A DNA stretch of 64,000 bases from an uncultured bacterium. GTDB taxonomy: Bacteria > Oederibacteriota > PGYV01 > CAWJRG01. Where the stretch lies: contig CAWJRG010000001.1 of the NCBI GenBank assembly GCA_963845185.1, forward strand, positions 270,806 to 334,805, in the 5' to 3' direction. Of the stretch, positions 24,001-27,000 are shown piece by piece (the first letter of the stretch is position 1; the number at the start of each line of letters is the position of its first letter). The position numbers were made by a program.

Positions 24001-27000
24001 TGCTTTTACTTCGTATAATTTCGTTTTCAGCGACTGTAAAAACTGTTTTAAGCTGCCGTCTATAAGGTTGAACCTGTCCCTTATTATAATGCCTCCCAGT
24101 ATGTCAGGGTTAACTTCGGTTTTTACTTTCAAAGTACTGTGCATTTTTTTCTCAAGTTCTTTTATAAGCCTGTCCCTGTCTAGCGTGCTCAAAGGATAAG
24201 CTGTCTCCATTGTTATTTTCCTTATCCCAGCGTCCTCGTCAGCCATTTCAGCGAATATATCGCATATATCATAGAATATCTTCTCCCGTTTTTTATCCAC
24301 TACAAGGCACAAAAAATCAAATGAAAGCTTTGATATATCTTTCGAAAATATTTTTTTCAAAATATCCTTTTTTTCATCCCTGTTTATGCCCGGATGGTAA
24401 AAAACATCCTGAACGTTAACGTTGTTTTTCATGAAAATCTCTATTGCCTTCAGGTCTTCTTTTACAACCTGCAGACTGTTTTGCTCTTTTGCAGCCTGAA
24501 ACAGCGCCTCCGCGTATTTTGACGGGAGTACCAGGTTTCCCATTTTTAATTCACCCTTTTCTCAATATCTTTTAAATAATTTTTGATTATCCCCATCTGT
24601 TCCTTGCTTCCCACTTTTTTCTTTATGACCTTTTCAGCGACCATTATGGAAAGTTCCGCTATCTTATCCTTAACGCTTCCTATTGCCCGTATTTTCTCCG
24701 CCTCTATCTCGCGTTTTGCCTCGTCGATTAATTTCGCGCCTTCCTTATGCGCTTCTTCAGTCATCTGCGACTTGATTTTGTCGCCTTCGGCCACCGCTTT
24801 CTCGAGCGCGCTGCTTGATTTTTGCTCTATTTCTTTAAGGCTTTTTTCGTATTCCAGCTTCATTTTCTCAATGTCGGCTTTGTCTTTCTCGATTTTGTCA
24901 ATTGATTCCCTGATAAAATCGTCTCTTTTCTTTAAGGTTCTGGAAAGCGCCTTTATAAAAAGAATCCATACCAGTGGCATTGCGATTAAAAAAGTAATTA
25001 TCTGCGTTAAAAATACCGGCCAGTTTATCTCTACCATAGTAAACCTCCAAAATTCAAGTTTGCGTAAGTTGTTTCCATGAGTCCAAGCGGAGCTTTCGCC
25101 CCGCGTTTTTTAACTGATAAAAAATGCCGAGAACGGATTTGCAAAAATAAGTATCAGCCCTATAACAAGCGCATAAATCGTAAGGGATTCGATAAAAGCA
25201 AGTCCAAGGATTAACATAGTCTGTATCTTGCCTGCTGCTTCAGGCTGTCTTGCAAGGCCCTCAGCAGCCTTTGCAGTAGCCATTCCCTGTCCAAGTCCGC
25301 ATCCAAGTGCCGCTAATCCAACTCCGAGCGCTGCTGCCAATACCGTAAAAGCGAAGAAATTTACGCTCTCGTTTGTCGCTTTTTTAACTGCCGGCGCCGC
25401 AGCCGATGTTTCGGCAGCAAAAGCCGTGCCGACAACCGCAACAACAATCAAAACCGCCATCAACAAAGTAACTATCCTTTTCAAATCTGCACCTCCTGTT
25501 TTTAATTTCAATTTTTATATTTTATTTTAATTCCCTGTTTTTATTTACCGCGCATGCTCTTTGCTGTGTTCATCCTCTCCATGATGAGCCGCCACTGCGC
25601 CTGCAAGGTATATTGATGTCAGCAGAGCAAAAACGCCTGCCTGAATAATACTTACTAGTGTTCCTAACACTATAATAAGCGGCCTTAAAAGGAAAGCAAA
25701 ACCACCTATTAGTCCGGCAATTACTCTTTTCAGAATTTCCTGGTTACTCAAGTCAGGCCAGAACATTAAAACCAACAACACAAGCACGCCTAATAGAATT
25801 TCTTTTGCAATTAGATTTCCGAAAAGCCTGAAAGACAGTGACAATGGTCTGGATATGTCTGAAAGCATTTCAACAAAAAACATAAAAGGCTTTAAAGGCC
25901 CTGGTATACCCGGCCCTCCTGTAAAGTGCGCAAAAAATTTAATAGGCCCTACTTCAATAATGCCTGAAATCCAATACCAAAAAAATACCATTAATGCGAG
26001 CGCTACAGTAACGGACAGGCTTGACGTTGGCGATGTAAGACCAGGTACAAGCCCAATAAAATTGCCTATTAAAATATAGAAAAAAATCATTACTATAAGT
26101 CCATAATATTTTGGCGCTTTCTCCCCTATTATGGAGTCCGCGGTATCAGTGATATATTTGACCGTCCATTCCACAAGGTTCTGGGCTTTTTTGGGTTTCA
26201 TTTTTGGATTTACTGACCCTAACGCGAATATAATAAAAATAATAAGATAGTCAAGCAGCATCATTAGTAGTATTGTAAAATAATGGTCATCAAGTCCAGG
26301 TATAAATGATTTGAATTCTATGGCTTCTTTTATTCCAGTCATTACTTTGTCTCCTTAGAATCCGTTGATTTTGCCTAGTGTCAACAGCAAAGGCAAAATC
26401 TTACGGAATCTTGCACCCAATCCAGTCCGAGGCTACTAATCCGAGGACGAGCGGTGCTTTTTCACTCTTGAAATCAACGCATCTGCCGCTATTAAAACAA
26501 GGGTCAAAGTAAATCCAATCAAAAATCCCTTAATACTGTAATACTTCCTGAAAATTATAAGTCCTGCCAGCGCGCATCCGATAAGCATCACTTTTAAAAA
26601 GTATATCAGGACTGTCATGATCACCGCGCCGGTTGACGGGGTATCCGGCTTGACTACTGATTTTACTGTGAACACAATCGCCGCAAAGTTTATTGTGCCT
26701 AACGCAAGCCCTGCCAGCAGCCCGGATACAATTTCTCTTCTAATTACAGCAAACAGGCAGCATGTTATCACAAAACATGCGAAAAATAAAATAAAAATCC
26801 GTTTAATGTTTATCATTACTTTTCGCGACACCGTAAATTATATAGACGAAACCCGCTATAATCCCGAACAGCAGGCATCCTATTGTAAATAGCGGTTTTA
26901 AATGCGTTACTTTATCAAGCCACAGGCCCAATCCCAATCCTGCGAAAGTTGAAAGCACCAGCGTAAAGCCCAGCGCCCCGAGATTGCCCACAGTATTTAA

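Follow-up and report, generated by a model that had tools for sequence, protein, structure and literature searches.

An ATP synthase c subunit predicted to be made as a signal peptide-bearing precursor in an uncultured bacterium of the Oederibacteriota

The window analyzed here is a stretch of 64,000 nucleotides of contig CAWJRG010000001.1 (GenBank assembly GCA_963845185.1), from an uncultured bacterium of the Oederibacteriota, and positions are counted along it. It carries a complete atp operon in the order ATPase_gene1, an atpI-like gene, atpB, atpE, atpF, atpH, atpA, atpG, atpD, and atpC (Table 1). The gene atpE is the open reading frame 25110-25484 on the reverse strand, translated from a TTG codon at 25482-25484 into 124 residues, and it is the sole c-subunit gene of the genome, with a single PF00137 match genome-wide. 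Elsewhere in the window, the delta subunit (23908-24543, reverse strand; 211 aa) extends past the family models with a basic, Lys/Ala-rich terminal tail of about 30 residues, the gene immediately upstream of the operon, on its strand, encodes a bifunctional nuclease (PF02577; 27087-27569), and a 759-aa protein encoded at 30964-33243 (reverse strand) joins a PilT-like ATPase (T2SSE domain) to a long TPR region. With regard to the spacer between atpE and atpF, all 22 order loci examined, this one included, have a GC hairpin that starts at most about 20 nt past the atpE stop, with stems that differ from locus to locus. The motif following it reads G[GC]ACT[TC]AT[AG] or a near variant, the sense strand has no U-tract, and a hairpin precedes the same motif at at least two other intergenic sites of the genome. 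Searching Rfam with the hairpin returned no match, and RNAalifold on an unguided alignment returned no consensus. Through partial termination or processing of the mRNA, this hairpin may be what gives c its excess over the subunits encoded downstream. Beyond the window, one intergenic sequence of at least 43 nt recurs identically in the genome, with six copies on three contigs.

Table 1. Position of the atp genes and of the elements of atpE in the window
Feature	Position	Strand	Basis and details
atpI-like gene and ATPase_gene1 (atpZ-like), operon head	26436..27024	-	atpI match below Pfam cut-off
atpB, subunit a, without leader	25545..26342	-	family models
Shine-Dalgarno sequence (8-nt match), 5 nt before the atpE TTG	25490..25497	-	7-10 nt matches at the long start in 21/21 full-length order loci
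Predicted Sec/SPase I signal peptide, residues 1-23	25416..25484	-	n: K2 R3; h: I4-V18; c: G19-A23; predicted cut after A23
Ala-rich polar spacer, residues 24-42, predicted periplasmic N-tail of the mature subunit	25359..25415	-	variable length and sequence; lowest-confidence part of the model
Canonical c-subunit hairpin, residues 43-124	25110..25358	-	GxGxGxG region, R79-Q80-P81 loop, ion-binding E99 with Q66, S100, L101, Y104
GC hairpin (25087-25104) then conserved short motif (25076-25084), atpE-atpF spacer, outside the leader	25076..25104	-	comparison across order loci
atpF, subunit b, single copy here, without leader	24546..25037	-	family models
atpH, atpA, atpG, atpD, atpC, F1 genes of the same operon	19472..24543	-	all above TIGRFAM cut-offs

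The core of AtpE is that of an ordinary F-type c subunit. PF00137 matches residues 49-112, and the protein scores 65.5 bits against TIGR01260 (cut-off 43.95), which identifies it as F-type subunit c; an assignment as N-ATPase subunit c was rejected, the score against TIGR03322 being 67.8 bits for a cut-off of 130.85 and atpH being present in the operon. Residues R79, P81, and E99 are invariant among 69 aligned homologues. In the AlphaFold model, the hairpin is confident and its fold matches c-rings in a fold search (rmsd about 1.5 Å, 66-85 columns aligned); the leader is drawn as a helix at residues 2-22 with a pLDDT near 79, and the spacer has low confidence, with a pLDDT below 50 at residues 26-30. 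According to the retrieved part of PMC2359735, Na+-coupled c subunits have Q, E, S, and Y and, where Thr67 stands, a polar residue. In AtpE, Q66, E99, S100, and Y104 are present, but the residue at the position of Ilyobacter tartaricus Thr67 is the aliphatic L101, so that Na+ coupling was rejected and, on the basis of this leucine, the rotor is predicted from its sequence to be probably coupled to protons.

The hairpin is preceded by a leader ending in A21-F22-A23, an AxA-type site in line with the −3/−1 (Ala-X-Ala) rule for Sec/SPase I signal peptides (as worded in the accessible text of PMC9360617), after which come A24-E25 and the Ala-rich spacer up to N42. A preliminary description of the locus had given AtpE as 124 residues made up of a leader with an AxA site, an Ala-rich spacer, and a normal hairpin, and had read the leader as a cleavable signal peptide. 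The reading frame, start, and layout are confirmed, with the predicted cut after residue 23, and the comparative evidence (the −1 alanine, the variable h-region, and the motif frequency against shuffled sequences) supports the reading well. We estimate a probability of about 0.88 that the leader is removed by cleavage. To examine the site independently of the AxA rule, the leaders of 110 of the best 120 homologues were anchored on the first charged residue following the uncharged run. Of these 110 leaders, 107 have E or D as the anchored residue, 89 have A two positions ahead of it, and 78 show a small-large-A/G pattern, which 2000 shuffles gave in 13.8 leaders on average and in 26 at most; these motif counts are not convertible to a probability because the relatives are not independent. 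Across residues 1-58 of 69 rows chosen from the homologues, M1 and A23 are the only near-invariant positions, A23 being present in 96% of the rows. The h-region and the spacer have column entropies of 2.54 and 2.45 bits, as against 1.16 and 0.71 bits for the core helices. A profile of residues 1-66 built from 25 loci was also compared with the PDB, where its matches beyond c subunits are the N-termini of recombinant Fab chains and secreted precursors. These matches are weak (E 0.001-3) and cover the first 24-40 residues, or residues 1-27 in many Fab chains, and in the alignment the last alanine of the Fab leader, presumably a cleaved StII signal, falls on A23.

Among the alternatives, the least improbable, although we still consider it improbable, is that the leader stays uncleaved and forms a third membrane helix on each protomer, packed on either the inner or the outer face of the ring. 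In the 110 leaders, the median length of the uncharged run is 21 residues, long enough to span the membrane, the topology permits such an arrangement, and the modeled helix mentioned above is compatible with it. A cleavage-site matrix trained on this genome (413 candidate exported proteins) places the best N-terminal site of AtpE at residue 23, but this score lies in the 9th percentile of the 413 and is equaled by 52% of 123 polytopic controls, so the matrix does not discriminate between the leader and uncleaved anchors; sites internal to AtpE outscored site 23, and the usual leaders of this genome contain more I, F, and L. The entropy of the leader gave a helical periodicity index of 1.8 in a test that failed on real packed helices used as positive controls. 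What speaks against a retained helix is that the −1 alanine is conserved while the sequence of the helix itself is not, that the leader has short variants (about 19-20 residues in the shortest homologues) and proline-bearing ones (17 of 110 leaders, with 16 of the 18 prolines at −4 to −6), and that close relatives do without the segment altogether. With regard to ring geometry, 10-15 extra helices are too many for the central pore, and extra helices on the outside would hide the Glu to which subunit a needs access.

A further alternative, which retains processing and which we regard as very improbable, is that the leader is removed by another route or at another site, i.e. by lipoprotein signal peptidase, after Tat export, or by a cut one or two residues away. 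The A-F-A-A-E stretch would permit a neighboring cut, and some relatives have L, F, or M at −3. A Tat or SPase II signal was on the other hand rejected, since the leader contains no cysteine and the homologues show a twin-arginine motif in 0 of 110 cases and a lipobox-like one in 1 of 110. Finally, it is hardly credible that the leader is a start-codon artefact with translation beginning near the core, an idea suggested by the TTG start and by 4 of 119 database proteins that are called short, one of which (P0072) matches the core of a leader-bearing locus, because the long start has a strong Shine-Dalgarno sequence here and in the order loci (Table 1), the six other in-frame candidate starts of the window having matches of at most 5 nt, because the codon at this same position is ATG in some order loci and TTG in others, because the window offers no usable start codon past residue 22 and before the core, and because the n-h-c pattern is kept at the protein level while the sequence drifts.

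Within the order, the leader is matched from residue 1-7 in 21 of 23 genomes, which reproduces the count on which the preliminary description based its statement that the leader is kept across the order. Of the two exceptions, one is cut by a contig end (G013) and the other, a genome 86% complete (G023), gave only a 92-aa N-ATPase-like c subunit. Such a second, leaderless 92-aa gene is also found in several other same-order genomes, including G019 and G014. Among 17 other genomes of the phylum, 13 have the leader, three lack it, all from family f12, and one has no match at all. The three f12 c subunits are 123 aa long; at the C-terminus, on the presumed periplasmic side, they are extended by about 40 residues that are charged and coiled-coil-like. 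A 70% identical same-order protein (P0024, which matches locus L008) is labeled Candidatus Goldbacteria, which places the present lineage as Ca. Goldbacteria-like; its AtpE adds to an already known precursor form.

At least 25 residues precede the core in 115 of 119 parsed proteins from the best 120 homologues. The leader is also widespread outside the order. It is found on the c subunits of the cultured species Thermodesulfobacterium hydrogeniphilum and Desulfocurvus vexinensis and in the likewise cultured T. geofontis, Thermodesulfatator indicus, Thermosulfurimonas, and Salidesulfovibrio brasiliensis. In Acidobacteriota, the phylum of Granulicella, 23 of 26 parsed loci have it (29 were fetched, and one unpublished locus and two multi-hairpin loci were left out), and in Nitrospirota 10 of 29 (31 fetched, two unparsed). 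For Desulfobacterota the figure is 24 of 30, from the best 30 matches in 41 genomes, and is biased upwards because these are the best matches to a leader-bearing query; the c subunit of Desulfofustis itself has no leader. A scan of genome contigs, which returned mostly N-ATPase-like c genes, found the leader in 2 of 79 loci, and a plasmid search and a cluster look-up yielded nothing further. The lengths of the N-terminal extensions are bimodal, with −2 to 7 residues in 40 of 137 proteins, 27-81 in 97 of 137, and none between. The tail following the leader spans about 4 to 23 residues across phyla, with one above 50 and this order at the long end; the longest belongs to a 151-aa c subunit from the phylum of Granulicella (L155), in which the leader is followed by acidic Ala/Glu/Gly repeats. 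On a tree of 130 c-subunit cores (77 columns), built by a quick method and with many open forks, the leader label changes nine times, at least three of these changes being forced by strong branches, and the tree gives no direction of change. The searches also returned two single-chain rotor candidates, P0169 (1139 aa), with 15 A/V-type-like hairpins, and P0122 (968 aa), with 13 F-type-like hairpins and W where G is expected, a pattern that suggests TGA read as Gly. TGA is read as Gly in Gracilibacteria. A 13-hairpin rotor subunit is known in Methanopyrus kandleri (PMC2359735, retrieved part).

Regarding solved structures, it had been claimed that c subunits align to AtpE only past the leader. 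This holds for the bacterial and chloroplast F-type PDB chains, which align from residue 44-51 on (phmmer), but not for subunit K of Thermus thermophilus, which aligns over the leader in profile searches. This protein, also called K/L (5gar_O, 99 aa; 8ywt_O, 102 aa; 8yy1_O, 73 aa), is a single-hairpin bacterial rotor subunit like AtpE but belongs to a V/A-type rather than an F-type enzyme. Both matches are weak, the 69-row profile aligning positions 8-110 to positions 4-95 of 5gar_O (E 8e-4) and the N-terminal profile aligning from residue 1 (E 0.12-0.15). Processed rotor subunits have been reported for T. thermophilus, Sulfolobus, and Halobacterium, and leader removal from the T. thermophilus rotor subunit was reportedly described by Yokoyama et al. 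in 2000 (JBC). Provided that our alignment has no gap, profile position 97, the ion-binding Glu, corresponds to about position 82 of the chain. In the retrieved passages of PMC11579504 and PMC7367684 the same residue is numbered E63, an offset from which we infer that about 19 residues may be removed from subunit K, as for a processed protein. Two NCBIfam models, PRK08482 (105 positions) and the V-type K model PRK06251 (102 positions), align from AtpE residue 8-11, with AtpE below both cut-offs. We take the former to represent Campylobacterales and the latter crenarchaea.

Among F-type enzymes, the c subunit of Aquifex aeolicus F1Fo is the nearest precedent known to us. Zhang, Marcia, Langer, Peng, and Michel (FEBS J, 2013) are said to have found experimentally that it has an N-terminal signal peptide needed for membrane insertion, and their survey reportedly grouped c subunits by their N-termini, with SRP-recognition features in the Aquifex type. 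Aquifex belongs to another phylum, and its mature tail is reportedly shorter than that of AtpE here. The leader-bearing AtpE proteins of Thermodesulfobacteria, Desulfovibrionia, Acidobacteriota, and Nitrospirota share the n-h-c leader, the A-x-A-type site, and the acidic residue that comes next. The M13 procoat (gene VIII) is cut after residue 23. Its layout is the same as that of AtpE, i.e. 23 residues ending in F-A and then A-E, about 20 polar residues, and a membrane helix, but the protein is unrelated and offers a mechanistic analogy only. According to the text available from PMC9360617, it is a YidC-only substrate with a signal peptide. E. coli subunit c, on the other hand, has the same hairpin, loop, and operon order as AtpE but is leaderless, with almost no N-tail, and is described as a YidC-only substrate in the retrieved parts of PMC9360617 and PMC7618853. 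A full-text literature search returned no text on a signal peptide of a bacterial c subunit, and the retrieved portions of PMC9360617, PMC8675477, PMC4154653, PMC8305020, PMC3387779, PMC3543383, PMC7618853, bioRxiv 10.1101/2024.02.27.582367, PMC11579504, and PMC7367684 make no statement on it; this blank is not proof of novelty because most subscription papers lie outside the coverage of the search. The implication of the preliminary description that no bacterial case is known does not stand, as the leader is widespread outside the order and is also found on the solved T. thermophilus rotor subunit. The leader-bearing c precursor is common in several bacterial phyla and has reportedly been described before.

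Together, these data are consistent with the following route of biogenesis, in which we infer the topology and the cleavage site of AtpE. The gene would be translated as a 124-aa precursor, the leader of which would target the chain to the membrane, insert with its basic N-terminus inside, and pair with the first core helix as a hairpin. The polar spacer would cross to the periplasmic side, and the first core helix would be set outside-in, an orientation to be viewed alongside the placement of both c-subunit ends on the side opposite the loop in the retrieved text of bioRxiv 10.1101/2024.02.27.582367. Signal peptidase I would then cut after A23 to give a 101-aa mature c subunit keeping a flexible periplasmic tail of about 19 residues, and the mature subunits would assemble into an ordinary, probably proton-driven c-ring. 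Hairpin insertion assisted by YidC is our guess, by analogy, because the layout is that of M13 procoat, a YidC-only substrate. The genome encodes YidC, two LepB proteins, Ffh, and SecY, and the leader therefore does not replace a missing insertase; the idea that it compensates for a lost YidC was rejected on this ground. The idea that it serves solely to export a long tail is weakened by leader-bearing forms with tails of 4-7 residues. The precursor form probably represents a shared, old route of c-subunit biogenesis in several phyla, lost or regained several times. As a tentative extension, which we consider possible but rather unlikely, the precursor would be both the ancestral and the majority form of c in a broad block of diderm phyla, the leaderless YidC-only route would be derived by repeated loss of the leader and tail as one block, insertion would be procoat-like, and cleavage would gate c-ring assembly.

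The locus extends a known c precursor form to an uncultured lineage. It would be unexceptional even if the 2013 Aquifex paper says otherwise, because the leader is so widespread; if that paper differs, it is the general observation, rather than the locus, that gains weight. From a practical point of view, the processed protein is the one to use for mature masses, c-ring models, and heterologous expression in these phyla, and where databases give a c subunit a short start, this is sometimes wrong. The breadth of the leader is the more useful result. Recent reviews of YidC and of signal peptides (PMC9360617 and PMC7618853) present subunit c, in their retrieved parts, only as a leaderless YidC substrate, whereas most sampled c subunits of Acidobacteriota and Desulfobacterota bear a leader. 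If the tentative extension is true, leader-bearing and leaderless sisters in Desulfobacterota, Nitrospirota, and family f12 would make the YidC needs of leaderless c subunits testable, and if cleavage gates ring assembly, signal peptidase would be needed for ATP synthase biogenesis in Acidobacteriota and Desulfobacterota.
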